Part shown: positions 31 through 21,359 of the stretch, in pieces
Position numbering within the stretch: the first letter of the stretch is position 1
Layout: the number at the start of each line of letters is the position of its first letter
NCBI GenBank assembly: GCA_037446215.1
Contig: JBBIJB010000031.1
Span: 1-23,175 of the forward strand
Length of the DNA stretch: 23,175 nt
Reading direction: 5' to 3'
From: Armatimonadota bacterium
GTDB lineage: Bacteria > Sysuimicrobiota > Sysuimicrobiia > Sysuimicrobiales > Humicultoraceae
The notes under the pieces: model-generated
What the model was told of the DNA's origin: nothing
The model's database searches: none
Seen by the model: the letters and a program-made list of their open reading frames with translations, nothing else
Made by a program: the position numbers and the translations under genes

Positions 31-1416
31 CTACTGATCCTTCCAGGAGCGCAGCTTGCTGAAGTTGGTGAAGGTCGTGGTTCCCATCAGGCCGGTGGTG
101 TCGTAGGTGAACACGAAGTCGCGGTCTATATCGGTCCAGTTTGACAGGATCGCCCCATAGAACTGGCCCACCACCCCGACCATCCTGTCCAGGTCGACCT
201 CGCCGTTGGGCACGTGCCACGCGCCTGCAACGATGCTCGAGCGGTCTATCTGGACGGCGGCCGGATCACGGCCCGTGGAGCGGACACGGAAGGTGAGGCG
301 CCCCGCCGGAACCGGAACGGTCCCGTAGGGAGCCGTCGACAGCATCCCTATGCGGCCGTACTGGCCCAACTGCACGGCCGTCCCGGTCGTCCTGGCGACC
401 CTGACCTCGACGTTGCCGGCCCCCTCGATGATGAGTCGGGCGCAGCGCTGCATGGTCAGCGACTCCATCTCGACGACCCTGGTCGTGCCCGCGGGGCCGG
501 CCCTGATGACGAGGTCGCGGAAGGGCGTGGTGCCTGTGCAGCCGCCGGACCCCCCGGCGGCGTTCACGGTCACGTTGCGCAGCGCAACGTTCCCCGCGGA
601 GGCATTGATCTCGTAGCTGGTGGTCGGGGAGGCCACGGTGACGTCCGTGGTGCCCGGCGCGAACGCCGGAAGAGGAACCGCCGGGCAGACAGGGCCCGGG
701 GCCCCGGAGACCGCGCGGCCCGCGACCTGAAGCGCGCATCCCTGGGAGCACGACACCGTTCCAACGGCCAGCGCGTCCCCAGCATACGACAGGGTGCCGT
801 AGGGCGGCGGGGCGGCCGCGCTGTTCTGGATCTGCGAATAGCTGGTCGAAGGCCCCAGCAGGGTTATGTTGGCGTTGGAGCCGACGTCGCCGTAGACCGT
901 AATCCCCTGGTTGATCGTCACTGTATCGTAGGAGCAGATCGCGTAGGTGCCCACGCCTTCAGGGAAGCCCTCGATGACCGCGACGACCACGCGGCGGGGG
1001 CCGCCCGAGGGAAGGGTGCCCTGGGAGACGATGCGCCGTAAGGCCGCGTTGGCGCCGCTGCACGGAGGGGTCGAGTCGGTCGCGTCGAGGCATCTAACCC
1101 TTACCACCGCCTGGCCCAGAGACTGCCCCGTGATCCCGTCGGTGATGGGAACGGTCTCGCCCGCGTAGGAGGCGGCCCCGGTCGACTGCAGCTTCGCCAT
1201 GGCGTAGTGAACGCCGGCCTCGGCGATGTTGAAGACGCGCACCGCCTGTATCTGGCGGACGCCGGCGGCCACGTCGGCGGTCACGAGCAGCATCACGCCG
1301 ACCGAGACCACGGCGATGAGCCCGAGGAACAGCAGGATGAACATCATCACCGCGCCGCGCTCGCCGGCCCTGGTCCTTGAGTGTGCTGTTCTCACCGATG
1401 CTTCCATCTTCCTCAT
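31..1416 (-). CDS. PilX/GspK-like minor pilin with a large C-terminal domain (461 aa)
   Basis: Basic leader, then ERG|AVMMFILLFLGLIAVV with no Glu at +5 (a PilX/GspK hallmark); PilX N-terminal motif 'VFNIAEAGVHYA'; last gene of the prepilin cluster; GAGG RBS. Confidence 0.8.
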   Translation of the reverse strand: MRKMEASVRTAHSRTRAGERGAVMMFILLFLGLIAVVSVGVMLLVTADVAAGVRQIQAVRVFNIAEAGVHYAMAKLQSTGAASYAGETVPITDGITGQSLGQAVVRVRCLDATDSTPPCSGANAALRRIVSQGTLPSGGPRRVVVAVIEGFPEGVGTYAICSYDTVTINQGITVYGDVGSNANITLLGPSTSYSQIQNSAAAPPPYGTLSYAGDALAVGTVSCSQGCALQVAGRAVSGAPGPVCPAVPLPAFAPGTTDVTVASPTTSYEINASAGNVALRNVTVNAAGGSGGCTGTTPFRDLVIRAGPAGTTRVVEMESLTMQRCARLIIEGAGNVEVRVARTTGTAVQLGQYGRIGMLSTAPYGTVPVPAGRLTFRVRSTGRDPAAVQIDRSSIVAGAWHVPNGEVDLDRMVGVVGQFYGAILSNWTDIDRDFVFTYDTTGLMGTTTFTNFSKLRSWKDQ

Positions 1417-1456
1417 GGCAACCTCTGAAAGCGCCCCGGCCGCCCGCGGGCTCCGG

Positions 1457-2239
1457 CTAGGGTAGCTCGTTTACCTCCTTCGAATTGACCCAGACGTTGG
1501 CGTTCGGCTCCGGGTTGCGCAGCATCACGTCCCGCGTCCAGGACTGCGCCTGGACCCCTGACGTCCCCTCCTGGCCCTGCACCTGGAGCGCTATCCGTAT
1601 CATCTGGATCCGACGGATGTGTCCCGCGGAGGTGAGGCTGGTCACCTCGACGCCGTTGGGGCCGTAGTAGGTGAACCGCAGTGACGTCACCTGGATCCTC
1701 GGATCAGAGAGCGGAACGGTGCTCTCCGAGGATCCGCCGCAGGCCTTCCGGTACTCCATCACCACCTGCCGGCCCGTCGAGGAGTCGGTACCGACGAAGT
1801 AGCCGATGGTGATGATCTCGTTCCCCGAGGTCGTGTCGCTGTTCAGCATCTCCCCGCTGACGTAGACCCTGCCGGAAGTGGGCCTCATCTCCGGGTCTCC
1901 GGTGGACGCCGGCAGCGCGACCACGCGGTCCTTGCACCTGTTGGGGAAGGCGGCCTGAGCCGAGTCGGTCGGGTTGACGTTGAATCCCGCGTTGCGCAGC
2001 CGCTCGGACATCCACTCGAGCGTCTGACGGGCCGTCTGGGCGTCGGCGGAGCGCATCGAGGTGATCATCTTGCTGCGCACGGCGGCGCCAACCAGGATGG
2101 AGAACGCGCCAGCGATGATGGCCATCAGCGCCGCCGCGACCAGCACCTCGGCCAGGGTCATGCCCGCCTGGCCGTCGTGGGCACGTCTCGCGGGGCTGTT
2201 GGGCCGCTGGCCGGGATCAGGGCTCGGGCGCTGTCGCAT
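1457..2239 (-). CDS. PilW-like prepilin-type N-terminal cleavage/methylation protein
   Basis: Class III signal QAG|MTLAEVLVAAAL with E5; 'ERLRNAGF' resembles the PilW helix-end motif; start overlaps the upstream gene. Confidence 0.8.
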   Translation of the reverse strand: MRQRPSPDPGQRPNSPARRAHDGQAGMTLAEVLVAAALMAIIAGAFSILVGAAVRSKMITSMRSADAQTARQTLEWMSERLRNAGFNVNPTDSAQAAFPNRCKDRVVALPASTGDPEMRPTSGRVYVSGEMLNSDTTSGNEIITIGYFVGTDSSTGRQVVMEYRKACGGSSESTVPLSDPRIQVTSLRFTYYGPNGVEVTSLTSAGHIRRIQMIRIALQVQGQEGTSGVQAQSWTRDVMLRNPEPNANVWVNSKEVNELP

Positions 2240-2684
2240 AGGTGAAATTCGCCACGTACGTGCTCAGGATGGTGTACGGCTGCGATGACGGCGCCTCGTA
2301 GAGAACCACCGTCAGCTTGCGCAGCGGCAGCGAGGCGTGGTTCTCGGCCAGGATCTCGGCCCGGTCGAACCCCGGCGGAATCCTGGGCTCGTCGACGGCA
2401 CCGTAGGTCGTGTAGCCCGTGGTCTGGGTCAGGATCCGCTTGTTGCCCACCTGAGGTATGAACGAGTAGCCGTGCAGCCGGAGGTAGTCGAGCTCCGCCT
2501 GCACCCATGCCGCGGCGTCGGCGCGTATCTTCCCGCGCCGGGCGGTGCCCATGCCGTAGACCAGCCCTCCCAGCACGGTCGTCGCTATCACGCCGAGCAG
2601 GGCGGTCGCCACGACGATCTCGATGAGGGTGAAGCCCCTCTGCCCCCTGCGGCGGGACCGCCCTTCAGACGCTCTAGAGCGCAC
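2217..2684 (-). CDS. PilV-like minor pilin
   Basis: Arg-rich leader then QRG|FTLIEIVVATALLG; second gene of the cluster; 155 aa. Confidence 0.8.
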   Translation of the reverse strand: MRSRASEGRSRRRGQRGFTLIEIVVATALLGVIATTVLGGLVYGMGTARRGKIRADAAAWVQAELDYLRLHGYSFIPQVGNKRILTQTTGYTTYGAVDEPRIPPGFDRAEILAENHASLPLRKLTVVLYEAPSSQPYTILSTYVANFTYATAPEP

Positions 2685-3162
2685 GGTAGCTCACCCGGCC
2701 CGTCCCCGACTCCACCGTGATTGTGTAGGACTTGCCGGAGGTACTCGTCACGTCGAGCGTCAGCGAGGTGCTTGGGACGCCCCTGCGGTCGAAGGTGACT
2801 GAGGTGCCGGTGGGGCCGACGCCGAAGCTCATGTGGGAAGGCAGGGTGTCTCGCCTCAAGACCCGCATGATGCCGTTGTACGAGACTATGTCGTAGGTGC
2901 GGTTGGAGTAGAACGTGGCGATCACGCTGGACCTCTGGGTCATCGCCGCCTGCTGGCCGGCGGCGATGTCGTAGACAATCGCCCGCACCCAGCCGTCGGT
3001 CTCCTCGCGCAGCATCGCCCCCCGGACTTGGATCGCGGCCATCGCGAGCATCACGCCCACGAGGGAGAGCACTATCACTATCTCCAGCACGGTGAAGCCG
3101 CGCTGGCCGCGGGGCCGCCCGCCGCCCCGTGCCTGGCTGTTCTTCGGCGCTGAAATCGACAC
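2674..3162 (-). CDS. FimT/FimU (GspH)-like minor pilin
   Basis: QRG|FTVLEIVIVLSLVG; C-terminal 'VTFDRRG...ITVESGTGRV' is typical of FimT/GspH. Start reassigned to GTG 3162 (or TTG 3165) behind GAGGGA rather than TTG 3285. Confidence 0.8.
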   Translation of the reverse strand: MSISAPKNSQARGGGRPRGQRGFTVLEIVIVLSLVGVMLAMAAIQVRGAMLREETDGWVRAIVYDIAAGQQAAMTQRSSVIATFYSNRTYDIVSYNGIMRVLRRDTLPSHMSFGVGPTGTSVTFDRRGVPSTSLTLDVTSTSGKSYTITVESGTGRVSYRAL

Positions 3163-3283
3163 CAAGACACCATCCCTCAACTGCCCGGGAGCCCTCAGGT
3201 GGATGCAGGGACTCCTTCCGTCTTCTATTGCCCAGGGGACCTCGCGGCTAGTCCCGTTCGCGGCCCTTCCTGCTTCCTCCGCC

Positions 3284-3310
3284 AACGAAGCGTGCGCCTC
3301 GGCCTATTCC
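3284..3310 (-). promoter_or_regulatory. Candidate ECF-type promoter (GGAAT-N19-GTT) upstream of the pilin cluster
   Basis: Minus strand GGAATAGGCCGAGGCGCACGCTTCGTT in the intergenic gap; resembles the motif at 15562-15587. Confidence 0.35.
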
Positions 3311-3356: not shown

Positions 3357-4361
3357 CTAACCGAACAGGTAGGTCTTCTCCCGCGGAACCACCAGGCGCA
3401 CCGGGCCTCGCGGGAGGAGCGTGCGCCTGTCGGCCATCACCACCTCGCCGCCCACCTGGACGTAGGCGCGGTATCCGGCGCCGAGGAAGAGCATGTCCAC
3501 CAGCTCCCCGTCCGCCCAGACCGCGCCTTCGGGGGGCGGGCCGCCCGATGGGAGCATCTCGATGTCCTCGGCGCGGAAGATCAGCCTGCTGCCCTCGGCC
3601 GGGACGATCCTGCCCGAGGGGTCGATGCCCGCGGACAGCACGTTGGTGGCACCGAGGAACTCCGCCACGAAGGCGTCCCGCGGACTGGCGTAGACCTCCT
3701 CGGGCCTGCCCGCCTGGGCCACGCGCCCCGAGTCCATCACGACGACCATGTCGGCGATGCTCATCGCCTCCTCCTGGTCGTGGGTGACGTAGATGGCCGT
3801 TATGCCGGTGCGGCGCTGCAGGGCCCTTATCTCGACCCGCACCCGGTGGCGGATCTTGGCGTCCAGGTTCGAGAGCGGCTCGTCCAGCAGCAAGACCTTG
3901 GGGCGCACCGCGACGGCGCGGGCGAGCGCCACGCGCTGCTGCTGCCCGCCCGAGAGCTCCCGGGGCCTCCGCCGCTCTACCCCGGGCACGCGGTCCAGCT
4001 CGACAAGCTCGAGGGCTTCACCCACGCGACCCGCGACATCCCCCCTGGGGACCTTTCGGAGCCGCAGGGCAAACGCTATGTTCTCGAAGACGGTCATGTG
4101 AGGCCACAGCGCGTAGCTCTGGAAGACCATCGCCGCGTCGCGGGCCTGGGGCATGACGCCCGTGACGTCCCGGTCGCCCATTAGGATCCGGCCGGCATCG
4201 GGGGTCACGAAGCCGGCCAGGCTGCGCAGCAGCGTCGTCTTGCCGCACCCTGACGGCCCCACGACCGCGGTCAGCGCGCCCGAAGGAAAGGCCTGGGTGA
4301 CGCCGTCGAGCGCCCTGACCTGGCCGTAACGCTTAACGAGGTTCTCGACGCGGACTTCCAT
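3357..4361 (-). CDS. ABC transporter ATP-binding protein (PotA/FbpC-like)
   Basis: Walker A GPSGCGKT, Q-loop FQSYALWPH, signature LSGGQQQR, Walker B LLLDEP, H-loop YVTHD. Confidence 0.95.
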   Translation of the reverse strand: MEVRVENLVKRYGQVRALDGVTQAFPSGALTAVVGPSGCGKTTLLRSLAGFVTPDAGRILMGDRDVTGVMPQARDAAMVFQSYALWPHMTVFENIAFALRLRKVPRGDVAGRVGEALELVELDRVPGVERRRPRELSGGQQQRVALARAVAVRPKVLLLDEPLSNLDAKIRHRVRVEIRALQRRTGITAIYVTHDQEEAMSIADMVVVMDSGRVAQAGRPEEVYASPRDAFVAEFLGATNVLSAGIDPSGRIVPAEGSRLIFRAEDIEMLPSGGPPPEGAVWADGELVDMLFLGAGYRAYVQVGGEVVMADRRTLLPRGPVRLVVPREKTYLFG

Positions 4362-4368
4362 GGTACTG

Positions 4369-5223
4369 CTACAGCCTCCCGAAGAACGCGAGGTACTCGG
4401 CGCGCAGGAACCGCTCCATCGCCACCAGCAGCACTACGCCCGGGATCATCAGCACCAGGGCGGTCACCGAGGCGATCTGCAGCTCGTATCCCAGGCTCGC
4501 GGTGTACATGTAGACGGGCAGCGTAGTGACATAGGGGGCGCCGACGAGCAGCGTCCCGGTGAACTCGTCCAGCGAGTAGATGAAGACCAGTATCGAGCTG
4601 GCGACCACTCCCGGCAGCGCAAGGGGAAGGGTGATCCGGAAGAAGGTCCGTGTGAACGACGCCCCCAGGTTGATGGCGGCCTCCTCGATCTCCTCGCCGA
4701 TGGCACGGAAGACCGCGGTCATGGTCCAGACGGAGTAGACCAGCCCGCCGACCAGGTGGATCAGCACGACCCCGAGGAAGGTGCCCGCCAGGTTCCAGCG
4801 GTAGAAGAGGACCGCCGCGCTCGCGAAGACCGGAAGCTGGGGGAACGCCTGGGGCAGCAGGAACAGCATGAGCACGACCGGCCCCAGAGGCAGGCGGGCC
4901 CTCGCCGCCCCGTAGGCGATGGGCACCGAGGTGACGAGCGCCGCGGCCGTGGTCACCAGCGCGATGGAGACGCCCCGCGTGAGAGCGCCCAGTAGGTCCC
5001 CCTGCGTTATCCGCGCCCAGTACTTCGTCCCAATCTGCTGGGGGAAGACGGCGGGCCAGTACCAGCGCTCGGCGACCGACCAGAGCACGAGCCCCAGCAG
5101 CGGGCCCACGATCACCGCCAGCAGGATAGCGACGAGGGCCGTCCGGCCGATAATCGCTCCTAGGCCGCGTGGGCCCCGGCCCCGCGCCTGGGGGTTGCTG
5201 CCTGGATCGCGCCTCCCTTCCAT
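4369..5223 (-). CDS. ABC transporter permease (PotC-like)
   Basis: Several hydrophobic segments; EAA loop 'IEEAAINLGAS'. Confidence 0.93.
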   Translation of the reverse strand: MEGRRDPGSNPQARGRGPRGLGAIIGRTALVAILLAVIVGPLLGLVLWSVAERWYWPAVFPQQIGTKYWARITQGDLLGALTRGVSIALVTTAAALVTSVPIAYGAARARLPLGPVVLMLFLLPQAFPQLPVFASAAVLFYRWNLAGTFLGVVLIHLVGGLVYSVWTMTAVFRAIGEEIEEAAINLGASFTRTFFRITLPLALPGVVASSILVFIYSLDEFTGTLLVGAPYVTTLPVYMYTASLGYELQIASVTALVLMIPGVVLLVAMERFLRAEYLAFFGRL

Positions 5224-5229
5224 GTCCGG

Positions 5230-6096
5230 CTACTTCGCCAACGATCTCAGGTAGTAGTAGGCGGCGCCGGCGGCCAGCAGGTAGGAGACGACGCCTATCG
5301 CGCTCGCCGTCCCGAAGTCGCCGTGCTGGCCGTAGCGGTGGTAGAGGTCGATCATCAGCATCTGGGGGCCGGATCCCCTCGACATCATCAGCGGGATCGA
5401 GAAGGAGGCGAGCATCGAGGTCAACGACAGCACGGCCGCCAGGCCGATCGACGGGGCGGCCATCGGCACCAGCACCGCCCAGATCTGTCGGATCGGACCG
5501 GCGCCGAAGCCCCGCGCCGCCTCCAGATAGGACTCATCCACGCCCCGAAACGCGCCCATCAGCAGCAGGACCACCAGCGCGAGGTGCTTCCACGCGAGCG
5601 CGATGGCGAGCCCCATCCACCCCTCGCTGAAGGCGAGGGTAGTATCCGCGGGAACCAGCCCCAGCGCGTGCAGCGTGGAGAGCAGCGTTCCCCTGGGCGC
5701 CAGGAAGACCCGCATGGCATGCCCCACCACGACGAACGGCACGAACAGCGGAACCTTGAGAAGGAACTCGGCCACGTGCGAGTGGCGCAGCCTGAGATGA
5801 CCCGAGAGCGGTATGCCTATGCCGAAGGTCAGCAGGAGCCCGGCCGCCGCCACGCCTACCGTGTAGAAGACATCCTGCCTGTAGAGGCGGTAGACCAGCT
5901 CGTAGTTGGCGAGCGTCCAGTTCCCATCGCGCATGAAGGAGGCGGTCAGCGACTGCAGCAGCGGGAATCCGAAGCCGATGAGGATGACCGCGATCGCCGG
6001 CAGCGCGGCGAGCCACCAGAGAGCCTGCTCGAGCGGGCGCGCCCGCTCGACGGGACGAACCCGCCCCCCGAGCGCGCCCGCGGAGAGTGCCTTCAC
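5230..6096 (-). CDS. ABC transporter permease (PotB-like)
   Basis: Hydrophobic segments; EAA loop 'YLEAARGFGAG'; GTG start directly abuts the binding-protein stop. Confidence 0.93.
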   Translation of the reverse strand: MKALSAGALGGRVRPVERARPLEQALWWLAALPAIAVILIGFGFPLLQSLTASFMRDGNWTLANYELVYRLYRQDVFYTVGVAAAGLLLTFGIGIPLSGHLRLRHSHVAEFLLKVPLFVPFVVVGHAMRVFLAPRGTLLSTLHALGLVPADTTLAFSEGWMGLAIALAWKHLALVVLLLMGAFRGVDESYLEAARGFGAGPIRQIWAVLVPMAAPSIGLAAVLSLTSMLASFSIPLMMSRGSGPQMLMIDLYHRYGQHGDFGTASAIGVVSYLLAAGAAYYYLRSLAK

Positions 6097-11404: not shown

Positions 11405-13534
11405 TCAGCCGGCGCGGGGCCTGCTCCCGGGCCCCAGCAGACGTCCCGAGTTGAGGAGGATCAGGAGGTCGGGAATCACCTGCGCCGCTGCCGCGAATAT
11501 CGGCGGCAGGAGGCCGGCGGCGGCGAGCGATGCCCCCACCACGTTGTAGGCCACGGTGCCGTACAGGTTCTGGCGGATGACGCCGAACGCTTCCCGGCCC
11601 ATGCGGAACGCCTCGGGAACCAGGTGCCAGTCGTTCTCCATTATCGCCACATCCGCGGCCTCCAGCGCCGCTGAGGTGGCCGCGCCCATCGCGATCCCAA
11701 CGTCGGCCTGGGCGAGAGCGGGCGCGTCGTTGATCCCGTCTCCCACCATCGCGACCGTGCGGCCCTCGGCCTGCAGCCTGCGAACCTCCCCGATCTTGTC
11801 CCCGGGCAGCATCTGGGCGCGGAAGGCGACACCCAGCGGCCGCGCGATGCCTTCGGCCGCGCGCTCCGAGTCCCCGGTGAGCACGGTCACGTCGCCTAGA
11901 CCCATCGTGCGGAGCGTGGCCAGTGCCCCCGGCACCTCGGGCCTGGGCGCGTCCGCGACCGTGATCGCGCCAAGTATCGCGCCGTCGTTCGCCACGTAGA
12001 CGACGGTCTGCTCGAGCGGCCCGGCTTCACCGGTCCCCGCCTCGAGGTCTGCCCCGACCGCGAGCCCGCGCCCCTCCAGGAAGCGCCGGCTGCCGACCGT
12101 GATCGCGCCGGAGGGATCTCGGAGCACGACTCCCTGCCCCGGGGTGATCTCTACATCCGCGGCCAGGGAAGGAGGATCCGCGTCGTGACCGTGGTGTGCG
12201 CCTGCCCGCGACGCCGCCACGATCGCGGCCGCGACCGGGTGCTCGGAGTAGCGCTCGGCCCGCGCGGCGAGCCTGAGCACCTCTTCTCGGGCGATCCCCT
12301 GCGCGGGATAGACCCCTGTCACCAGGGGCCTGCCCAGGGTCACGGTCCCGGTCTTGTCGAGCAGCACGACGTCGGCTCTCGCCAGGGCCTCGAGCGCGCG
12401 CCCGCCCTTGATCAGCACGCCGGCCCTGGCAGCGCGGCCCACCGCCGCGATCACCGCGACGGGGGTGGCCAGGGCGATGCCGCAGGAGCAGGAGACCACC
12501 AGGACCGCGACGGCAGCCTGCGGTGAGCCACCTACTAGCCACGTGGCGGCGGCCAGCGTCGTGACCACGGGGGCGTAGTACGCCGTCACGCGGTCCGCCA
12601 GGCGCTGGGCGCCGCTCTTCTCGGCCTCGGCCTCCTCGACCAGGCGCACGATCCTCCCGTAGGTCGAGTCGGACCCGACGTGCTCGGCCCTGACCAGGAG
12701 CACGCCGTCGAGGTTCACCGTCGCCGCGAGGAGCCGCTGACCCTCCCTCCGCTCGACCGGCACCGACTCCCCGGTGATCGGGGCCTGGTTCATCGAGGCG
12801 CGGCCGGAGACGACGACGCCGTCGGCGGGAACCCGCTCGCCGGGCTTCACCATGAAGAGATCGCCGGGCGCGAGCCGCTCAGCGGGGACCTCCTCCTCGA
12901 GGCCTTCCCGTACGATCCGCGCTATAGGCGGCTGCAGCGCGACCAGCTCCCGTATCGCCTGCCGTGCGCGACCCGAGGTGTAGGCGTCGAGGAAGTCGGC
13001 GAAGCGCATGAAGAAGACGATGACCGCCGCCGCCCCGTACTCGGATATCGCGAGCGCGCCCGCAACGCCCAGCATCATCAGCGCGTGCGGAGTGATGGTG
13101 CCGGCCCGCAGCGCGAGCAGCGCCCTGCGGAAGACCGGGAACCCTCCCACGAGGACCGCGGCGGTCGCCAGGGGTGGAGGAACGAGGCCCGCCGCGGCGT
13201 CGAGTAGACCCAGCCGCTCCGCCGCAAGCCCTCCCAGCACGGCAGCGGCCACGAGCGCAACGAACGCGCCGGTGACGATCTCGGAGCCCGGCGTGGCCGT
13301 GCGGGCGGCCCGCTGCGCGCGGACATCGTATCCGAGGTCCATCACTGCCCGAACGATCCTGCTGGGAGAGACCTTGGCCGGGTCGTAGAACACGCTCGCC
13401 CTCTCGGTCCCGAACGAGACACCGGCGTGCTCGACTCCCGGGACCTTCCCGAGCGCTCGACTGATCGTGAGCGCGCAGTCGGCGCAGTCCATGCCCGAGA
13501 TCGTGAGTTCGACTCGCCCACTGGCGCCGGTCAT
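11405..13534 (-). CDS. Heavy-metal-translocating P1B-type ATPase with N-terminal HMA domain and CSC transmembrane motif
   Basis: GMDCADC metal-binding domain, TGES, DKTGT, SEHP, TGD, GDGINDAP; 'VVSCSCGIALATP' replaces CPC. Start reassigned to ATG 13534, after the fabF stop. Confidence 0.93.
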   Translation of the reverse strand: MTGASGRVELTISGMDCADCALTISRALGKVPGVEHAGVSFGTERASVFYDPAKVSPSRIVRAVMDLGYDVRAQRAARTATPGSEIVTGAFVALVAAAVLGGLAAERLGLLDAAAGLVPPPLATAAVLVGGFPVFRRALLALRAGTITPHALMMLGVAGALAISEYGAAAVIVFFMRFADFLDAYTSGRARQAIRELVALQPPIARIVREGLEEEVPAERLAPGDLFMVKPGERVPADGVVVSGRASMNQAPITGESVPVERREGQRLLAATVNLDGVLLVRAEHVGSDSTYGRIVRLVEEAEAEKSGAQRLADRVTAYYAPVVTTLAAATWLVGGSPQAAVAVLVVSCSCGIALATPVAVIAAVGRAARAGVLIKGGRALEALARADVVLLDKTGTVTLGRPLVTGVYPAQGIAREEVLRLAARAERYSEHPVAAAIVAASRAGAHHGHDADPPSLAADVEITPGQGVVLRDPSGAITVGSRRFLEGRGLAVGADLEAGTGEAGPLEQTVVYVANDGAILGAITVADAPRPEVPGALATLRTMGLGDVTVLTGDSERAAEGIARPLGVAFRAQMLPGDKIGEVRRLQAEGRTVAMVGDGINDAPALAQADVGIAMGAATSAALEAADVAIMENDWHLVPEAFRMGREAFGVIRQNLYGTVAYNVVGASLAAAGLLPPIFAAAAQVIPDLLILLNSGRLLGPGSRPRAG

Positions 13535-13559
13535 CTGGAAACCCTGTCTTGTATGGGGG

Positions 13560-14813
13560 TCAGGGGCGGGAGAAGACCGCCACGATGTTCTGGCCTCCGA
13601 AGCCAAACCCGTTCGCGATCGCCGCCCTGACGTCCGAGTGCCGCGCAACGTTGGGCACGCAGTCGACGTCGCACTCGGGATCCTGTCTCTCCAGGTTGAT
13701 CGTCGGGGGAATCACGCCCTCGCTGATCGCCATTACCGCCGAGAGTGCGCTGACCGCGCCGGCCGCGCCCATCAGGTGCCCGACCATCGACTTGGGCGAG
13801 CTCACCGCCACGCGATCTGCCTCCGGCCCAAACGCCTGCCGGATCGCCCGCGCCTCGGCGACGTCGCCTATCGGCGTGGCGGTGGCATGCGCGCAGATGT
13901 AGTCGATGTCCGCCGGGGTGAGCCCGGCCCGGGCGAGCGCCCGGCTGATCGCCCTGGCAGCACCCCTGCCCTCGGGATCGGGCGCGGTGATGTGGTAACC
14001 GTCCCCGGTGATCGCTCCCCCGAGCGCCGCCGCGTAGATGCGCGCGCCCCTGGCCTCCGCGTGGGCCCGCCGCTCCAGCACGAACGCCGCCGATCCCTCG
14101 CCGAAGACGAAGCCGTCGCGGTCGGCGTCGAAGGGCCGGCTCGCCCGCTCGGGCTCGTCGTTGCGGCGCGACAGCGCCCGCATGTTGGCCATCCCGGCCA
14201 GCGCAAGGGGCGTGATCGCCGACTCGGTCCCTCCGGCAACCACCGCGTCCGCCTCTCCTTCGCGTATCAGCCTCACAGCATCCACGAGGGCCAGCACGCC
14301 GGCGGCGCATGCCGCCGTGGAGGTGATGACCGGTCCCCGCAGGCCGTGCGATATCGAGACCTGGCATGCCCCTATGTTGGGCATCATCATGGGCACGAAC
14401 AGCGGGCTCACGCGGCGTGGGCCGCGCTCGCCCATCAGCGTGGTCTCGCGCTCCACCAGGCCCACCCCGCCCCCCCCGGTGTTCATAACGACACCGATCC
14501 GCTCGCGGTTCGACTCGTCCATCTCGAGTCCGGAGTCGGCGAGGGCCTGGGAGGCGGCCGCGGCCGCGAACTGGGTGAACCGCTCCAGCCGACCCGCCAT
14601 CTTGGGGTCGATGTAGGGCGTGGGGTCGAAGTCGCGAACCTCGGCCGCGATCTGGACGGAGAGCAGGGAGGCGTCGAACTGCGTGATCCGGCCGACGCCG
14701 GACCTCCCGGCGCACAGCGACTGCCAGGTCTCCGCGGCGGAGAGGCCGACCGGTGTAACTGCTCCCAGGCCGGTCACCACGATGTCCGGGGCTGAGGGCG
14801 CCACGAGTGTCAT
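13560..14813 (-). CDS. fabF: Beta-ketoacyl-ACP synthase II
   Basis: 'VVTGLGAVTPVG', catalytic Cys in TAACAAG, 'SRPFDADRDGFVFGEG', His in AHATATPIGD and GHLMGAAG, C-terminal NGFGFGGQN. Confidence 0.93.
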   Translation of the reverse strand: MTLVAPSAPDIVVTGLGAVTPVGLSAAETWQSLCAGRSGVGRITQFDASLLSVQIAAEVRDFDPTPYIDPKMAGRLERFTQFAAAAASQALADSGLEMDESNRERIGVVMNTGGGGVGLVERETTLMGERGPRRVSPLFVPMMMPNIGACQVSISHGLRGPVITSTAACAAGVLALVDAVRLIREGEADAVVAGGTESAITPLALAGMANMRALSRRNDEPERASRPFDADRDGFVFGEGSAAFVLERRAHAEARGARIYAAALGGAITGDGYHITAPDPEGRGAARAISRALARAGLTPADIDYICAHATATPIGDVAEARAIRQAFGPEADRVAVSSPKSMVGHLMGAAGAVSALSAVMAISEGVIPPTINLERQDPECDVDCVPNVARHSDVRAAIANGFGFGGQNIVAVFSRP

Positions 14814-14832
14814 GGTATCAGAGTTGCGGGCG

Positions 14833-15531
14833 TCAAGGTAGCGGAGGCTCGGTCAGCCCGACCTCGCCGGCGGCCGAGGCCACTGCCTCGGCGAGGACTT
14901 GCTCGGGTACCGCGCCCGTCACCTCATGCCGCTCGTTGATCACCGTCTTCGGTACCGCGTAGACGCCGTAGCGCCGTGCAACGTCGGGAAACTCGCTCGC
15001 CCCGACGATGTCGGCCCTCACGCGGGCCGAGGCGATCGCCATGTCGGCGGCCAGCCTGGCCGCCCGCGGGCAGTGGGGTCAGGTGGGTGTGACGAACACC
15101 TGGATGTGGGCGTCCGCGGCGAGCCCGCGCAGCGTGTTCACCGTCTCCTCGGAGAGAGGCGCCCTTCCCTTCGAGGCATCGACCACGAGATCGAGCAGCG
15201 TCACGAACTCGTAGCCCGCGGGTATCCCGTAGAGGCGGATGCCGTAGTCCTCGGCGCCGACGATCGCCGTTGCGGGCGCCCGCTGGATCCCAAACGCCTC
15301 GGCGACCTCGCCCTCCGAGGCCAGGCTGTGCTCCTCCAATGTCACGCGGTCACTGAGGGCTACGACCTCCTCGAGGATCCGGCGGGCGTACTCGGAGAGC
15401 GCCGCGTCCTCGCCGGGCAGGCTCAGCCCTCCCGCGGCAGGCGCGAAGAAGACCAGCCTCACCGGGCCTTCCATCTCGGCCTCCAGCCGCTTCCTGACGA
15501 ACGCGGCGTCCTGCTCATTCAAGTAAGCCAT
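14833..15531 (-). CDS. Protein disulfide oxidoreductase (PDO / AhpF N-terminal-like, two thioredoxin folds); probable selenoprotein with UxxC (232 aa)
   Basis: ORFs 15079..15576 and 14833..15042 are in one frame separated only by TGA 15081-15079, reading VFVTPT-U-PHCPRAARLA. PDO motifs 'GIPAGYEF' and 'YGVYAVPKTVIN'; ATG 15531 with GAGGTGG RBS. Confidence 0.9.
15046..15064 (-). promoter_or_regulatory. Candidate bacterial SECIS element
   Basis: GGCGGCCA-GGC-TGGCCGCC, a perfect 8-bp stem whose G-initiated loop lies 23-25 nt after the UGA. Confidence 0.65.
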
Positions 15532-15561
15532 CGCCCACCTCGCTCTACCCCGCACGTTCAG

Positions 15562-15587
15562 AACGTCCGGCCTCACCAGGCTATTCC
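15562..15587 (-). promoter_or_regulatory. ECF (SigR/SigH-like) promoter GGAAT-N18-GTT upstream of the oxidoreductase
   Basis: Minus strand GGAAT AGCCTGGTGAGGCCGGAC GTT, ending 30 nt before the ATG. Confidence 0.6.
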
Positions 15588-15770
15588 GCGGCTGCCGGCA
15601 GGGGATAGCGTCGGCTCAGGGGAAGTAACCACCGTGCTACACGCCTCGACAGCTCGCCCTCCCGGCCGCGGCCAACGACCGGGAGGAGACTAGCGATGGG
15701 CGGCGGGTGCAAGACGACCGCCGCCCTTTCTCATCCCGCCCAGCCGTAACCGACGCACAGGGAGGGCCTG

Positions 15771-16943
15771 ATGAGCACCTGCGTTGCGATCGTAGGGGTC
15801 GGGTGGACAGGCTTCAGGCCGGTAACGCCCGAGGCTTCCTACAAGGAGCTGATGTACGAGGCGGCACGACGCGCCTACGCCGACGCCGGCGTTGATCCGC
15901 GCAAGGACGTGGACACCTTCGTGACCGTCTCCGAGGACTTCCACGAAGGCACCAGCATCTTCGACGAGTACGTGCCCGACCAGCTAGGAGGAGCGCAGAG
16001 GCCCGTGCACACGATCTCGGGCGACGGCCTGCACGGGCTGGCCGCGGCCGCGATGCAGATCCTCACCGGCAGGTTTCGCATAGCCGTCGTCGAGGGACAC
16101 AGCAAGGCCAGCAACATCCTCACCCTTCCCAGCATCACGGCCTACGCTCTGGACCCTGTCGTCAACAGGCCGCTCGGATTCCACCCGGTGGCGGTGGCGG
16201 CGCTCGAGGCCGACGCGTACATGCGCCGCACCGGTGCGACCAGAGAGCAGTGCGCGGCGGTGGTAACGAAGAACAGGCGCAACGCGCTCCGCAACCCGTC
16301 CTCCGCCTACGGTGCAGAGCTGCGGGCCGAGGAGGTGATGGCCTCCGAGGTGGTGGCTTCGCCGCTCTCGCGCCTGGAGATCAGCGACCATGCCGACGGT
16401 GCCATAGCGATGGTCCTGGCAGACGCGAAGAGCGCGCTGCGACTGTCCCGGCGGCCGATCTGGATCCGCGGGATCGGTTGGGCGAACGACAGCCCCTCCC
16501 TCGAGAGCCGCCAGTGGGCCCGGGCCGCCTACGCGGAACGCGCAGCGGCCAGGGCCTACAGGATGGCCGGGATGGCCGACCCGCGCAGGGAGATCCAGTT
16601 CGCCGAGGTGGACGACACCTTCGCCTTCAAGGAGCTCCAGCACCTCGAGGCCCTCGGCTTGTGCGACAGCGGAGCGGCGGGGGCCCTCACGGCCTCGGGA
16701 GAGACCGCGTTCGGCGGCAGGCTCCCGGTCAACGTCTCCGGAGGGAGCCTCGGCGTGGGAGACCTCCTCGAGGCGGGCGGCCTCGCCAGGGCCCTGGAAG
16801 TCGTCCTGCAGTTGCGCGGCGAGGCTGGCTCCCGCCAGCTCGAGGGGGTCTCCGTGGGGGTTGCGCAGTCCTGGCGCGGTCTGCCCACGACCAGCGGCGC
16901 CGTGGCGGTATTCAGCAGCGAGGCGGGCAGGAGGGAATCATGA
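15771..16943 (+). CDS. Thiolase-domain protein, non-canonical (SCP-x/Ltp-like) subunit 1
   Basis: 'VAIVGVGWT', 'DGAIAMVLA', 'AEVDDTFAFKEL', 'LPVNVSGG'. The usual nucleophile Cys loop reads ISGDGLHG and the GHP motif reads GDL. Confidence 0.85.
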   Translation: MSTCVAIVGVGWTGFRPVTPEASYKELMYEAARRAYADAGVDPRKDVDTFVTVSEDFHEGTSIFDEYVPDQLGGAQRPVHTISGDGLHGLAAAAMQILTGRFRIAVVEGHSKASNILTLPSITAYALDPVVNRPLGFHPVAVAALEADAYMRRTGATREQCAAVVTKNRRNALRNPSSAYGAELRAEEVMASEVVASPLSRLEISDHADGAIAMVLADAKSALRLSRRPIWIRGIGWANDSPSLESRQWARAAYAERAAARAYRMAGMADPRREIQFAEVDDTFAFKELQHLEALGLCDSGAAGALTASGETAFGGRLPVNVSGGSLGVGDLLEAGGLARALEVVLQLRGEAGSRQLEGVSVGVAQSWRGLPTTSGAVAVFSSEAGRRES

Positions 16944-18118
16944 GCATGCGTCGGGTAGCCGTCGTAGGCGCGGGCATGACCCGGTTCGTCCGCCGCGCCA
17001 TGGAGACGCCCAAGGAGCTCTCGTGGCAGGCCGCCGGGATGGCGCTGGAGTCCTGCGGGCTCACGCTGAACGAGGTGGACGCCGTCTGCATAGGGAGCGC
17101 GCCGGACGCCTTCGACGGCATCCACATGAAGGGCGAGTATCTCGCCGACGGCTCGGGCGCCTGGGGAAAGCCGGTGATGCGCTCGTTCGTGGGCGGCGGG
17201 ACCGGCGTATTCGCCGCGCCTCAGGGCTGGTACCACGTGGCCAGCGGCCTCTTCGACGTTGTGCTCGTCGTCGCCGAGGAGAAGATGTCGAGCTTCTACC
17301 CCCACGCCCAGGCCGCGTTCCTCACGATCTTCGACCACACGACCGAGCGGCCGCTGCAACCCAACCTGCTGTGGATCTTCGCGCTGGAGATGAACCGCTA
17401 CATGCAGACCTACGGGATCTCCAAGCGCGACGTCGCGCAGGTAGCCGTCAAGAACAAGCGCAACGCGGCCGACCACCCGTGCTCGATGCTTGGCCAGGCC
17501 GAAATAACCGTGGATGACGTGTTGAACTCGGAGGTCCTCGCCTATCCCGTGCAGCGCCTGGACGTGAGCCCGGTCAGCGACGGCGCCGCAGCGCTGGTCC
17601 TTGCCTCCGAGGAGGTCGCCGCGCGGGTCACCGACAAGCCTGTCTGGGTGCAGGGGGTCGGCTGGAACCTCGACACGGCGTACTGGACCAACCGCGACCT
17701 GGCCTACCCCGAGTACGTCGAGCGCGCGGCCCGCATGGCCTACGAGATGGCGGGGGTCCGGGAGCCGCGCAAGGAGATCCATATCGTCGAGCCCTATGAC
17801 CCGTTCGACTACAAGGAGCTGCACCACCTGGAGGGGCTGCTGCTGGCCGACCGCGGCAAGGCCCCCGAGATCACGGCCCAGGGGATAACGGCGAGGGACG
17901 GCGCAATGCCCGTCTGCCCCTCGGGCGGGCTGCTCGGCGTGGGCAACCCGATCTCCGCCGCAGGCCTAATGAAGGTGGCCGAGCTGTTCTGGCAGCTTCG
18001 CGGGGAGGCCGGCAGGCGCCAGGTGCCCGGCAAGCCGGAGCGAGGCCTGGCGCAGGCGTGGGGCGACCTGATGCAGGTGGGCACGGTCGTGATCCTCGGG
18101 ACCGAGAGGCCTTCATAG
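16940..18118 (+). CDS. Thiolase-domain protein, non-canonical (SCP-x/Ltp-like) subunit 2
   Basis: Start at ATG 16940 (ATGA overlap, GGAGG RBS); 'VAVVGAGMT', 'SPVSDGAAALVLASE', 'EPYDPF', 'PSGGLLGVGNPISAAG'; the Cys loop reads FVGGGTG. Confidence 0.88.
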   Translation: MSMRRVAVVGAGMTRFVRRAMETPKELSWQAAGMALESCGLTLNEVDAVCIGSAPDAFDGIHMKGEYLADGSGAWGKPVMRSFVGGGTGVFAAPQGWYHVASGLFDVVLVVAEEKMSSFYPHAQAAFLTIFDHTTERPLQPNLLWIFALEMNRYMQTYGISKRDVAQVAVKNKRNAADHPCSMLGQAEITVDDVLNSEVLAYPVQRLDVSPVSDGAAALVLASEEVAARVTDKPVWVQGVGWNLDTAYWTNRDLAYPEYVERAARMAYEMAGVREPRKEIHIVEPYDPFDYKELHHLEGLLLADRGKAPEITAQGITARDGAMPVCPSGGLLGVGNPISAAGLMKVAELFWQLRGEAGRRQVPGKPERGLAQAWGDLMQVGTVVILGTERPS

Positions 18119-18135
18119 GAGAGGAGCGGCGTGAG

Positions 18136-18651
18136 ATGACCGAGCGGATCTCTTCGTTTCCCGGCACCGCGCTAGGCGAAGGCGACTTCGAGTCCGGCAG
18201 GGTCCTGTCGGTCCACGACCGCCTGCGGGCTCACTACTCCTGGGACGCGGGCCCCGCGATAGGCCGCTACCTGCAAGGGCTGAAGGAAGGCCGAATGGTC
18301 GGGGTCAGGTGCGGCCGCTGCGAGCGCACGGTGGTGCCGCCGAGATCGTTCTGCGAGTGCTGCTTCGGTCCGATGGGCGAGTTCGTGCCGCTGGCCGACG
18401 CGGGCACGGTCAACACCTTCTCGCTCTGCTACGTCACCTGGGACGTCAGGAGGATAACCGATCCCCTGCTGCCCGCGGTCATAGACATAGACGGAACCTC
18501 CCCGCCTGCCGGCATCCTGCATCTGTTGGGCGAGGTAGACCCACAGGAGATCCGCATAGGGCTCCGGGTGCGGGCCGTCTGGAAGCCTTCGGAGGAACGC
18601 GAGGGAGCTATTACCGACATCCGCTACTTCAAGCCCCTGGACGGAGGTTAG
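18136..18651 (+). CDS. DUF35 Zn-ribbon/OB-fold acyl-CoA-associated protein
   Basis: CGRC...PPRSFCECC zinc ribbon, 'GTVNTFS', 'IGLRVRAVW'; ATG 18136 after GAGGAG. Confidence 0.9.
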   Translation: MTERISSFPGTALGEGDFESGRVLSVHDRLRAHYSWDAGPAIGRYLQGLKEGRMVGVRCGRCERTVVPPRSFCECCFGPMGEFVPLADAGTVNTFSLCYVTWDVRRITDPLLPAVIDIDGTSPPAGILHLLGEVDPQEIRIGLRVRAVWKPSEEREGAITDIRYFKPLDGG

Positions 18652-18653
18652 CC

Positions 18654-19124
18654 ATGCCGCTGGAACCAGTCCTGCGCACCGACCGGCTCCGCTCCTGGCA
18701 GGGCGAGATGCCGGTTGCCAACCGCTACAGCTTCGGAGTGGCGCTGGAGCGGTTCTTCCGCGCGATCAAGGACGAGGGACAGATCCTGGGAACCCCCTGC
18801 GCCCGCTGCGGCGTGACCTACGTTCCGGGCAGGATCTTCTGCGAGAGGTGCTTCGACGGGCTGACCGAGTGGAAGGCGGTCGGACCCCAGGGAACGGTCG
18901 AGGCGATCACCCTGCTCCACGTGGACCTCGACGGCTCCCGGCTCGCACAGCCGCGCCTACTGGCGCTGGTCAAGCTGGACGGCGCGGGCACGGTCCTTCT
19001 CCACTACCTGGAGGGCGCCTCTCCCGGGGAGGCTGGGGCAGGGCTGCGGGTCGAGCCGGTCTTCAGGCCGGCCGGCGAGCGGATCGGATCGATCCTGGAC
19101 ATCCGGCACTTCAGGCCGGCCTAG
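18654..19124 (+). CDS. DUF35 Zn-ribbon/OB-fold protein (second copy)
   Basis: CARC...PGRIFCERC, 'GTVEAIT', 'GLRVEPVF...SILDIRHFRP'; ATG 18654 after GGAGG. Confidence 0.9.
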   Translation: MPLEPVLRTDRLRSWQGEMPVANRYSFGVALERFFRAIKDEGQILGTPCARCGVTYVPGRIFCERCFDGLTEWKAVGPQGTVEAITLLHVDLDGSRLAQPRLLALVKLDGAGTVLLHYLEGASPGEAGAGLRVEPVFRPAGERIGSILDIRHFRPA

Positions 19125-19143: not shown

Positions 19144-19644
19144 TCAGCGCCGGGGCGTCTGACCCTCGGCTATGCGGCGGATCTCCTCCAGGAGCCGCAG
19201 GGTGTCGTGCTCGAAGGTCTCCTGGATTATCGCGAACTTGGCCATCTGCTCCGGGGTGAGGATCGCCCCGATCGCCTGTAGCTGCCCGCGCCGCTTGGCC
19301 TCCGCATCCGCGCGCAGGGCGTTGAGCTCGCTCACCTTCGCGCGAATCAGCTCCTCGTCGCGGGGCTGTTGGGCCGAGAGGTGGCGGATCTCGCGCATCA
19401 GGCGTGGCGCGCGCCGCCCCATCTCTATACGGATCCCCTTCAGGGCCTTCATCACGGGGAAGACCCGCGCGATCTGGGCCTCGCTCAGGTCTAGTTCGTC
19501 CACGAGCCGCCAGATGAGCAGCGCCTCGATAACCCTGCCGCCGCGGGGCGTGGGCGACGGCTCCTGGCCGGCGGCCGGAACGACTAGCGCAACTGCCGCG
19601 ACCAGCAGGCCCAGCGCGACCGTGCGCGCCGGAAGCGCTCTCAC
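19144..19644 (-). CDS. Exported helical protein, Spy/CpxP/ZraP-like
   Basis: GTG 19644 overlaps the anti-sigma stop (GTGA); signal peptide ending VPAAG|Q; LTxxQ-like motifs 'LDLSEAQ' and 'ILTPEQ'. Confidence 0.75.
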   Translation of the reverse strand: MRALPARTVALGLLVAAVALVVPAAGQEPSPTPRGGRVIEALLIWRLVDELDLSEAQIARVFPVMKALKGIRIEMGRRAPRLMREIRHLSAQQPRDEELIRAKVSELNALRADAEAKRRGQLQAIGAILTPEQMAKFAIIQETFEHDTLRLLEEIRRIAEGQTPRR

Positions 19645-20153
19645 CGCCGCACCTGCTCGGCGGGCGCGTCCGAGCCCGCGGGAAGCCCGGCGCGCCAGGT
19701 CTCGAGCAGCTCGCCCAGCGACGGCAGCGTCTCCGCCATGGCCTGGGTGACGAGCCCTCGGGCCCGAGCGTCGACCAGGTACGGCTGAGGCGGCAGGGGA
19801 ACGGTGCGCACCGCCAGCATGACGGCAAAAACCGCTCCCGCGGTCAGCGCGGCCGTTCCGAGCGCGTGCAGTGGAGAAGCCAGCCACCTGAGGGCGCGCG
19901 ATGCCAGAGGGGGGCGGTCCGAGGCTATCCGCTCGCCGAGCCTTCTCATGAACCCCGGCCAGAAGCCCGGCGGAACGATCACCCTCCCCTCGTCCCGCAG
20001 GAGGGCGGCTAGCTCCTCGATCCCGGCGGCCTCCTGCCGGCAGCTGTCGCACACCGCCAGGTGGCCCGCTATCCAGGCCCTCTCCCCTGGCGGGAGCGAT
20101 CCGGTCGCGGCCTCGACGAGGCGGTCCAGGGTCTCCTGGCAGCTTCCGGTCAC
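19641..20153 (-). CDS. Zinc-binding anti-sigma factor (zf-HC2) with one TM helix
   Basis: N-terminal Cys plus HLAVCDSC (HxxxCxxC); hydrophobic segment 'ALGTAALTAGAVFAVMLAV'; overlaps the sigma stop. Confidence 0.88.
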   Translation of the reverse strand: MTGSCQETLDRLVEAATGSLPPGERAWIAGHLAVCDSCRQEAAGIEELAALLRDEGRVIVPPGFWPGFMRRLGERIASDRPPLASRALRWLASPLHALGTAALTAGAVFAVMLAVRTVPLPPQPYLVDARARGLVTQAMAETLPSLGELLETWRAGLPAGSDAPAEQVRR

Positions 20154-20713
20154 GGCGCGAGCACTCCCTCCTCTATCAGTGCGCCCCTGAGCTTACGAAG
20201 AGCGGCGAACATGGTGGCCTTCACCGTTCCTTCCGAGCATCCCATGATCCGCGCGATCTCCTGGTAGGGCATGTCCTGATAGAGGCGGAGAGCCACCATC
20301 GCCCGCTGGCGAGGCGGGAGCGCGGAGACCGCGCGGACCACGGCCCTTCCCGCCTCCCGGCCCTCGAAGGCCTCCTCTGTGCCGGGGCCCGGCGCCTGCT
20401 CGTGCCTACCCTCCTCGAGGTCGGCAACCGGAAGCCGCACGGACCGGGCCCTGGCGTCGAGGCAGAGGTTGACCGCGATGCGGTAGAGCCAGGTGTAGAG
20501 CTGGGAACGGCCGTCGAACCTATGAAGCGCCCGGTGGGCCCTGATGAACACCTCCTGCGCAACGTCCGCGGCGTCCTCATGGTTACCCAGCATCCGGCGG
20601 GCGATCCTGTATACGCCCTCCCGGTACTTGATGACGAGCGCGGTGAAGGCGCTCTCCTCACCGAGCGTGAAGGCCTCGATCAGCTCGCGGTCCTCAGCGT
20701 CTGGCGCCGCCAT
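20150..20713 (-). CDS. ECF RNA polymerase sigma factor
   Basis: Region 2 'DAADVAQEVFIRA...FDGRSQLYTWLYRIAVN'; region 4 'LPPRQR...YQEIARIMGCSEGTVK'. Confidence 0.95.
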   Translation of the reverse strand: MAAPDAEDRELIEAFTLGEESAFTALVIKYREGVYRIARRMLGNHEDAADVAQEVFIRAHRALHRFDGRSQLYTWLYRIAVNLCLDARARSVRLPVADLEEGRHEQAPGPGTEEAFEGREAGRAVVRAVSALPPRQRAMVALRLYQDMPYQEIARIMGCSEGTVKATMFAALRKLRGALIEEGVLAP

Positions 20714-20753
20714 CCCTCACCACTCCTGTGACGGCGTAGAGCCCGCCCCGGGT

Positions 20754-21359
20754 TTACTCCGGGAAGACCTTCGCCATCTCCTCCACGGGAGACCAGTCGA
20801 GGTTGCGGAAGAAGGCGTCGATGTAGGCCGCCTTTCCCGTCTGGTAGTCCAGGTAGTAGGCGTGCTCGAAGACGTCGAGCGCGATGATTGCGGACGCGTT
20901 CCACACCGGATAGGTGTTCTGCTCGTCGCCGATGTAGTTGAACAGCCGCATCGTGTTCCAGTCGTAGGCGGTCCAGGCCCAGCCCCTGGCGGCGATCGCG
21001 GTCGCCTTCAGGTCGCGCTGCCACTCCTCGAAGCTGCCGAAGTCGCGCTCGATCATCTCCAGCAACTTACCGGATGGCTTGCCCCCCTTGCCTCCCAGGT
21101 GCGAGAAGTAGAGCTCGTGGTGCTTGACACCTCCGATCGCCCTGGAGAGCTCCACCTTGAGCTCTCGGATCTCGGAGTAGGTGGGGTTCGCCTTGGCCGG
21201 ATCCTTGTCCAGCGCCGCCAGCTTCTCGTGGATCTCGTTCGCCTTCGCGACGTAGCCGCTGTAGAGCTTGTAGTGCTCTTCCATGGTCTTCTTAGAGATC
21301 CCGTCCAACTCGACTTCGAACGCGTGGAACTTCTTCGCCTCGTACTTCGGATATGCCAT
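20754..21359 (-). CDS. Fe/Mn superoxide dismutase family protein
   Basis: Signature DVFEHAYYLDY, N-terminal His in EEHYKLY and KHHELYF, 'FGSFEEW', 'GWAW'; strong RBS AGGAGGTG. Confidence 0.92.
   Translation of the reverse strand: MAYPKYEAKKFHAFEVELDGISKKTMEEHYKLYSGYVAKANEIHEKLAALDKDPAKANPTYSEIRELKVELSRAIGGVKHHELYFSHLGGKGGKPSGKLLEMIERDFGSFEEWQRDLKATAIAARGWAWTAYDWNTMRLFNYIGDEQNTYPVWNASAIIALDVFEHAYYLDYQTGKAAYIDAFFRNLDWSPVEEMAKVFPE

Follow-up and report, generated by a model that had tools for sequence, protein, structure and literature searches.

A probable selenocysteine-containing protein disulfide oxidoreductase encoded across an in-frame UGA codon in an Armatimonadota bacterium

Organisation of the locus and family of its product

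The window analysed here, i.e. the whole stretch of 23,175 nucleotides, is one contig (C31; JBBIJB010000031.1 of assembly GCA_037446215.1) of a 2.16-Mb draft genome that consists of 149 contigs and is 91% complete. On its minus strand the list of open reading frames includes two ORFs in the same frame (15576/15531..15079 and 15042..14833), and the sole stop between them is the TGA at 15081-15079. Readthrough of 15531..14833 gives a product of 232 aa with VFVTPT-U-PHC-PRAA at residues 145-158 (in the context HIQVFVTPT-U-PHC-PRAARLAADM). The initial annotation had described two same-frame ORFs split only by this TGA, and it was right as to coordinates, motif and length. The features of the locus and of its neighbourhood are the following:

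14833..15531, minus strand: whole predicted selenoprotein gene, 232 codons plus the TGA stop (translation with the internal TGA as U)
15534..15540, minus strand: candidate Shine-Dalgarno-like AGGTGGG just 5' of the ATG at 15531, read by eye
15079..15081, minus strand: UGA codon 151, predicted to be read as Sec, at the first Cys position of the C-terminal CxxC
15070..15072, minus strand: TGC codon for Cys154, the putative resolving partner of Sec151 (from the translation)
15046..15064, minus strand: candidate bacterial SECIS hairpin, 8-bp stem GGCGGCCA/UGGCCGCC, apical loop GGC (15056-15054)
13560..14813, minus strand: beta-ketoacyl-ACP synthase (FabF-like; Pfam ketoacyl-synt and Ketoacyl-synt_C)
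11405-13648: heavy-metal P-type ATPase (Pfam)
15771-19124, plus strand: two thiolase-like genes, then two ChsH2/DUF35-type proteins (OB-fold and zinc ribbon), divergent from the oxidoreductase gene
19144-21359, minus strand: Fe/Mn superoxide dismutase, ECF-type sigma factor and a weak Metal_resist match (Pfam)

The start ATG is found at the homologous position in all of a set of 20 orthologues. Besides the internal TGA, the frame 15531..14833 has one other TGA, the terminal codon 14835-14833, which is taken as a true stop because orthologues end near the same place, also with TAG or TAA. Cys154 is the only cysteine of the protein, residues 1-150 having none. The public protein identical to the product of the window is a stub of 150 aa, and such stubs make up 61 of the best 120 public matches, some under the name 'AhpF' or 'hypothetical protein', so that the misannotation by standard pipelines that had been anticipated is indeed what the databases hold.

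The FabF-like gene begins 19 nt after the stop of the selenoprotein gene on the same strand and is probably co-transcribed with it; a FabF-like gene also lies directly 3' of the orthologue in 10 of the 19 loci checked. The plus-strand genes at 15771-19124 are an SCP-x-type thiolase cassette, in which the listed ORFs of the ChsH2/DUF35-type proteins, counted from the first start codon, overlap. The genes at 19144-21359 together with the ATPase give the selenoprotein gene a neighbourhood of stress and metal functions. Among the window neighbours with Pfam annotation neither a peroxiredoxin nor a reductase gene is adjacent, and for this reason any redox partner named below is a guess. At the far end of the window (31-3285, minus strand) ORFs of 461 and 260 aa, both without a Pfam match, adjoin two small proteins that carry a prokaryotic N-terminal methylation (pilin-like) motif; this region may be a pilus or pseudopilus cluster.

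The readthrough product is matched by the NCBIfam model TIGR02187 'PDO_seleno_TRX' with 219.4 bits (cut-off 185; E 3.3e-65), and coverage is nearly full-length, with residues 6-219 on profile positions 2-208 of 209. Pfam Thioredoxin_3 is placed on residues 142-211, spanning the TGA. Against solved structures, the protein disulfide oxidoreductases (PDOs) 1J08, 1A8L, 2YWM and 2AYT are matched at E values from 4e-34 to 6e-32, the best being 1J08 (4e-34) and 1A8L (8e-34) over residues 2-220 of 232. Judged from these alignments, the match of the joined frame to TIGR02187 and to the solved PDOs is far beyond chance. Sequence alignment to 1J08 and 1A8L places two thioredoxin-like units in one chain, and the TGA is aligned with the first Cys of their FVTPTCPYCP, with U151-P-H-C154 on CPYC, as had been proposed when the UGA was assigned to the first Cys of a CxxC motif. 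The stretch AVPK, which we take to be the cis-proline loop of thioredoxin folds, is encoded 3' of the TGA and is conserved in these alignments; therefore a product of 150 aa would lack the entire catalytic fold.

Conservation of the UGA codon, the downstream hairpin and the decoding machinery

Matches containing a TGA were found in 27 of 41 related genomes and, once all of them had been extracted and aligned, the TGA stood at the same column in 27/27. Two of these (L025 and L035) come from genomes flagged as unpublished, and the count without them is 25/25. The residues after this column are P-H-C in 25 Sec forms, P-Q-C in one and P-Y-C in one. The 11 Cys paralogues (40-48% identity) all have TGC or TGT at this column within the motif C-P-Y-C, so that, as had been predicted, every homologue aligned has either TGA or Cys there. 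The N-terminal CxxC is present in 11/11 Cys paralogues and absent in 23/26 Sec forms of the phylum. Phylum-wide, a TGA-bearing match is present in 57 of 94 genomes, the column having been verified for 27. One orthologue match (G051:C19:330-1028) contains two TGA codons rather than one; the second could be a second Sec, an included terminal stop or a sign of decay.

The 66 codons 3' of the UGA have dN/dS between 0.14 and 0.55, with a median of 0.30, in 22 pairwise comparisons with the window, ratios that are rough because synonymous differences are near saturation (pS about 0.4-0.75). The upstream comparison was invalid for L040, where an indel breaks the ungapped comparison, and saturated (NaN) for L041. 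In the same 22 pairs, amino acid identity is 56-80% for the 66 codons after the UGA and 50-69% for the 150 codons before it. In these comparisons the codons after the UGA are thus at least as conserved as those before it and are under purifying selection. From both dN/dS and identity, the downstream half is clearly translated; the degeneration in relatives that would have spoken for a pseudogene was looked for here and conservation was found instead.

It has been described for bacterial SECIS (bSECIS) elements that the loop has 3-9 nt, the upper stem 4-16 bp and the spacing 16-37 nt, with a G in the first two loop positions and a minimum free energy of -7.5 or lower, according to the part of PMC13188914 that sets out the model. 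In the window, the hairpin GGCGGCCA-GGC-UGGCCGCC spans 14-32 nt after the UGA, inside the codons for R-A-A-R-L-A-A, and falls within all these limits (loop of 3 nt, GG, stem of 8 bp, spacing of 22 nt from the UGA to the loop). Its minimum free energy is -15.3 kcal/mol (z -3.2; 0 of 200 shuffles as stable). With the closing A-U pair opened the loop reads A-GG-C-U, a pattern given as the commonest loop in that same part of the published model (PMC13188914). Only this 19-nt hairpin stands out; the 81-nt fold around the UGA cannot be told apart from shuffled sequences of the same composition (z -1.29). The Rfam scan of 14700-15700 at E <= 10 gave four chance-level matches and no SECIS family.

Once the 27 Sec forms are aligned, pairing in the 8-bp helix amounts to 94%; at the corresponding columns of the 11 Cys paralogues it is 42%, with three of the pairs never formed. 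By this comparison the hairpin is Sec-specific. Compensatory changes are seen at two of the eight pairs (23:41, GC 11, CG 7, GU 2, UG 2; 26:38, GC 25, AU 1, CG 1), and the covariation rests on these two pairs (11 cells) because most pairs are invariant within the phylum; a covariation score this high was given by none of 500 shuffles, and every slid register did far worse. For the Arg within the hairpin 25 of 27 Sec forms use the codon AGG and none of the 11 Cys paralogues does, a bias which indicates selection at the RNA level on synonymous sites. A lower helix (columns 15-18 with 47-50) was dropped as driven by coding: the Cys paralogues are 84% paired there, as well paired as the Sec forms (91%), and for this reason it is not Sec-specific.

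An automated bSECIS test is passed by 27/27 Sec forms of the phylum, by 67/79 Sec forms of other lineages and by 2/11 Cys paralogues. The passing hairpins of other lineages (60 nt downstream, 79 loci) mostly differ in sequence from those of this phylum. The scan reports the lowest-energy qualifying structure, so its tallies of passes and failures are useful and its choice of structure is not; for the window it picks another structure, of lower energy and with a different loop, and not the conserved hairpin. Elsewhere in the genome only one other site (C57:14211-14255, minus strand) has a TGA followed after 10-30 nt by the same hairpin core. It was judged to be probably due to chance, its frame being low in complexity and not protein-like and overlapping longer ORFs in other frames.

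The initial annotation had expected the organism to have the Sec decoding trait, and selA, selB, selC and selD were all found. In a profile search of the genome contigs selA (490.6 bits) and selB (340.9 bits) score above their cut-offs, and tRNA-Sec is recognised both by Rfam (69.1 bits) and by ARAGORN, which calls it tRNA-SeC(tca). The three genes selA, selB and tRNA-Sec(UCA) form a compact cluster on one strand (contig C16:31773-36455). The selD gene, on contig C18, scores 377 bits, above its cut-off, and itself contains one in-frame TGA at the catalytic position, in the motif CAG-U-ASK (L007:2392-2394, minus strand), with a 7-bp hairpin of loop CGUGC about 32 nt 3' of this TGA; its product is predicted to be a selenoprotein as well. 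By gene content the trait is complete in this genome.

The gene structure, the family match, the conservation of the UGA, the selection downstream of it, the Sec-specific hairpin and the complete machinery, all established at the level of sequence, are the grounds for reading 14833..15531 as a gene that very probably encodes a 232-aa Sec-containing PDO, with UGA151 decoded via the downstream hairpin. The single selenoprotein of 232 aa that had been proposed from the two ORFs is well borne out by the TIGR02187 score, the conserved UGA, the hairpin and the Sec machinery.

It could be objected that translation does end at the TGA, the gene being a pseudogene or coding only for the 150-aa N-terminal stub, with the 69-aa downstream ORF as a remnant. 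Gene callers do annotate it so, giving 150 aa for the window and stubs for 61 of the best 120 public matches, and the gene is wholly lost in seven congeneric species. Nevertheless, 27/27 relatives at 40-70% identity have their TGA in this one column, the 66 downstream codons are under purifying selection, and the downstream part encodes the partner Cys of the CxxC together with the rest of a thioredoxin fold that aligns to solved PDOs; with a Sec-specific hairpin and the whole Sec machinery present besides, a real stop is very improbable. Equally small is the chance that UGA151 is read through as Cys, Trp or Gly, through near-cognate or reassigned decoding, to give a full-length thiol protein. 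A Cys version is viable, as the public protein P0003 (CPHC) nests inside the Sec clade, and Sec insertion depends on selenium supply. However, TGA is an ordinary stop here, since the long ORFs of the window as well as selA and selB are intact under table 11, the genome has a dedicated tRNA-Sec with SelA, SelB and SelD, and a conserved hairpin at SECIS distance would have no role under plain readthrough. Finally, a sequencing or assembly error that turned TGC or TGT into TGA, for which a single-base change in a draft of 149 contigs would suffice, can hardly be credited when the same TGA occurs in 26 other independently assembled genomes and in all 80 loci fetched from at least 120 public ones, and when the SECIS hairpin goes along with it. 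Thus the decoding of UGA151 as Sec is the reading followed below; the case for it is comparative throughout.

Distribution of the gene and its loss within one genus

A quick maximum-likelihood tree was built from 41 proteins (26 Sec forms, 11 Cys paralogues and four public Cys proteins), the split copy of genome G026 being left out. The window protein belongs to a clade (SH-aLRT 99) whose 24 rows are 23 single-site Sec forms and the public Cys protein P0003, and it has the longest end branch of its subclade (0.48). Three Sec forms that have two sites cluster with the Cys paralogues. P0003 (233 aa) has C-P-H-C, is 64% identical to the window protein and stands beside L032 within the Sec clade; it is apparently, from its motif and position in the tree, a Sec-to-Cys reversal in which the His was kept.

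A sequence search of the genomes of all seven other species of the genus did not find the gene, so it is dispensable. In six of these seven genomes selA is above the cut-off, and the seventh is only 73% complete. The flanking genes of the congeners (L060-L066) match those of the window at 71-81% DNA identity, a synteny which shows that the contig is genuinely of this genus and no contaminant. The gap between the flanks is 940 nt in the window (14831-15771), about 100-200 nt in six congeners and 1.3 kb in G005, where the empty site (L065:4725-6068) contains an unrelated ORF, about 400 aa long and bearing a Walker-A-like GKT motif, within a 677-aa frame (4042..6075). A remnant of the gene was sought at the empty site of the seven congeneric genomes and none was found (best E 0.026, at unrelated positions). 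Because a ketoacyl synthase is adjacent in those 10 of 19 orthologue loci, which belong to other genera, the other congeners have probably lost the gene by deletion, rather than its having been gained here. From the comparison of these sites this looks like a clean and recent loss of a selenoprotein within one genus.

Concerning the wider distribution, the tables of PMC1794560 give a UxxC selenoprotein family of the TIGR02187 type for Carboxydothermus hydrogenoformans and Symbiobacterium thermophilum, and reviews list the family with the representative ABB15282.1 (PMC9312934; PMC13188914), the latter reporting it from Asgard archaea too. Since TIGR02187/UxxC is already catalogued, the gene of the window is a mis-annotated member of a known and widespread selenoprotein family. 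Related to this, a scan of a public genome collection for the degenerate pattern F-V-T-P-T-UGA-P-x-C-P gave at least 120 loci. The 80 that were fetched are all homologues, with 32-64% identity, and 79 of them span the U column; their motifs are UPHC (49), UPYC (29), UPQC (1) and UPWC (1). By record titles, the sources among the loci listed are Chloroflexota, Acidobacteriota, Actinomycetes, Bacillota (including an Alicyclobacillus tolerans isolate), Ignavibacteria, NC10 and others. A literature search on this phylum together with selenoproteins listed one paper, which was unrelated.

Family, motif and mechanism being catalogued, the locus opens no new question. Its main value is for annotation: public calls shorten the protein to a 150-aa stub without the active site, and once the UGA is taken as Sec, a redox enzyme is recovered and the organism is revealed as a selenium user. 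For teaching, too, the locus is a clean case of a bacterial SECIS that overlaps a coding region, and the matched Cys paralogues supply a natural control.

Proposed mechanism and comparison with known systems

In the proposed mechanism, UGA151 would be read as Sec by SelB carrying Sec-tRNA(Sec), and SelB would be recruited by the hairpin within the coding sequence, 14-32 nt 3' of the UGA (loop GGC, at 22 nt). Without recoding, the product would be the 150-aa stub, from which the whole active-site thioredoxin fold is missing. The mature protein is predicted to have two thioredoxin-like units and one redox centre, U-P-H-C, in the second. Sec151 would be the nucleophile that attacks a substrate disulfide or an oxidised thiol, and Cys154 would resolve the intermediate, giving a selenenylsulfide. 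This would then be reduced, most plausibly by an NADPH-dependent thioredoxin reductase; the genome has such a gene on contig C22 (398.8 bits, cut-off 343), whose product is the likely reductant. Chemistry, reductant and substrates are proposed here from what is known of the thioredoxin, PDO and AhpF families.

A more ambitious proposal, which seems doubtful at present, is that the phylum carries a functionally distinct single-site Sec subclade within the known family. Four features would define it: the loss of the N-terminal CxxC; a dipeptide switched to P-H, which is like that of DsbA, from P-Y in the paralogues; a 17-nt SECIS core almost frozen across whole families, synonymous sites included, with the rare Arg codon AGG fixed; and a linkage to fabF, seen in the window and in the 10 of 19 related loci. 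If this were true, the subclade would serve a specific client, e.g. a redox step of fatty-acid synthesis, and not general disulfide reduction, and the clean deletion in seven of the eight species of one genus, which retain the Sec machinery, would mark a recent and datable selenoprotein loss.

Among known proteins, AhpF has an N-terminal unit of two tandem thioredoxin folds, the second of which contains the unit's only redox centre. Residues 28-185 of the window protein match this N-terminal part (PDB 1HYU, 1ZYN and 4O5Q) at E values from 9e-8 to 4e-6. In AhpF (TIGR03140, about 515 aa) the unit is fused to an FAD/NADH reductase, whereas the window protein stands alone, ends at residue 232 and is followed by the ketoacyl synthase gene. 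An identity as AhpF was ruled out, the score against TIGR03140 being 54.5 bits for a cut-off of 502.9, and ahpC or ahpF neighbours were looked for around the gene in the window by Pfam annotation and none was found.

The PDOs of Pyrococcus furiosus and P. horikoshii (1A8L, 1J08) are homologous over the full length (residues 2-220) and those of Aquifex (2AYT, 2YWM) over residues 13-213. In the alignments shown, FVTPT-x-P-x-CP and AVPK are common to the window protein and the solved PDOs. The Pyrococcus enzymes have a Cys active site, CPYC, and a second, N-terminal Cys pair; the window protein, on the other hand, would have Sec in its place (UPHC) and has no N-terminal Cys, so the Pyrococcus-type layout with two active sites is not found in it, the N-terminal CxxC being absent. 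As Cys154 is the only Cys, the protein is a stand-alone single-site PDO, nearer in layout to the N-terminal domain of AhpF.

The closest known system is the published TIGR02187 selenoprotein family. It is defined by the same NCBIfam model, which the window protein matches above the cut-off, the Sec is at the same place, the first residue of the C-terminal xxC motif, and both are stand-alone proteins of the same two-unit size. They differ in lineage, as the window belongs to a small phylum with 94 species genomes, whose public relatives bear labels such as 'Armatimonadota bacterium' or 'Ca. Fervidifonticultor quintus'. Set beside the family as it is described, the subclade of the window differs in that the N-terminal CxxC is lost and U-P-H-C is fixed.
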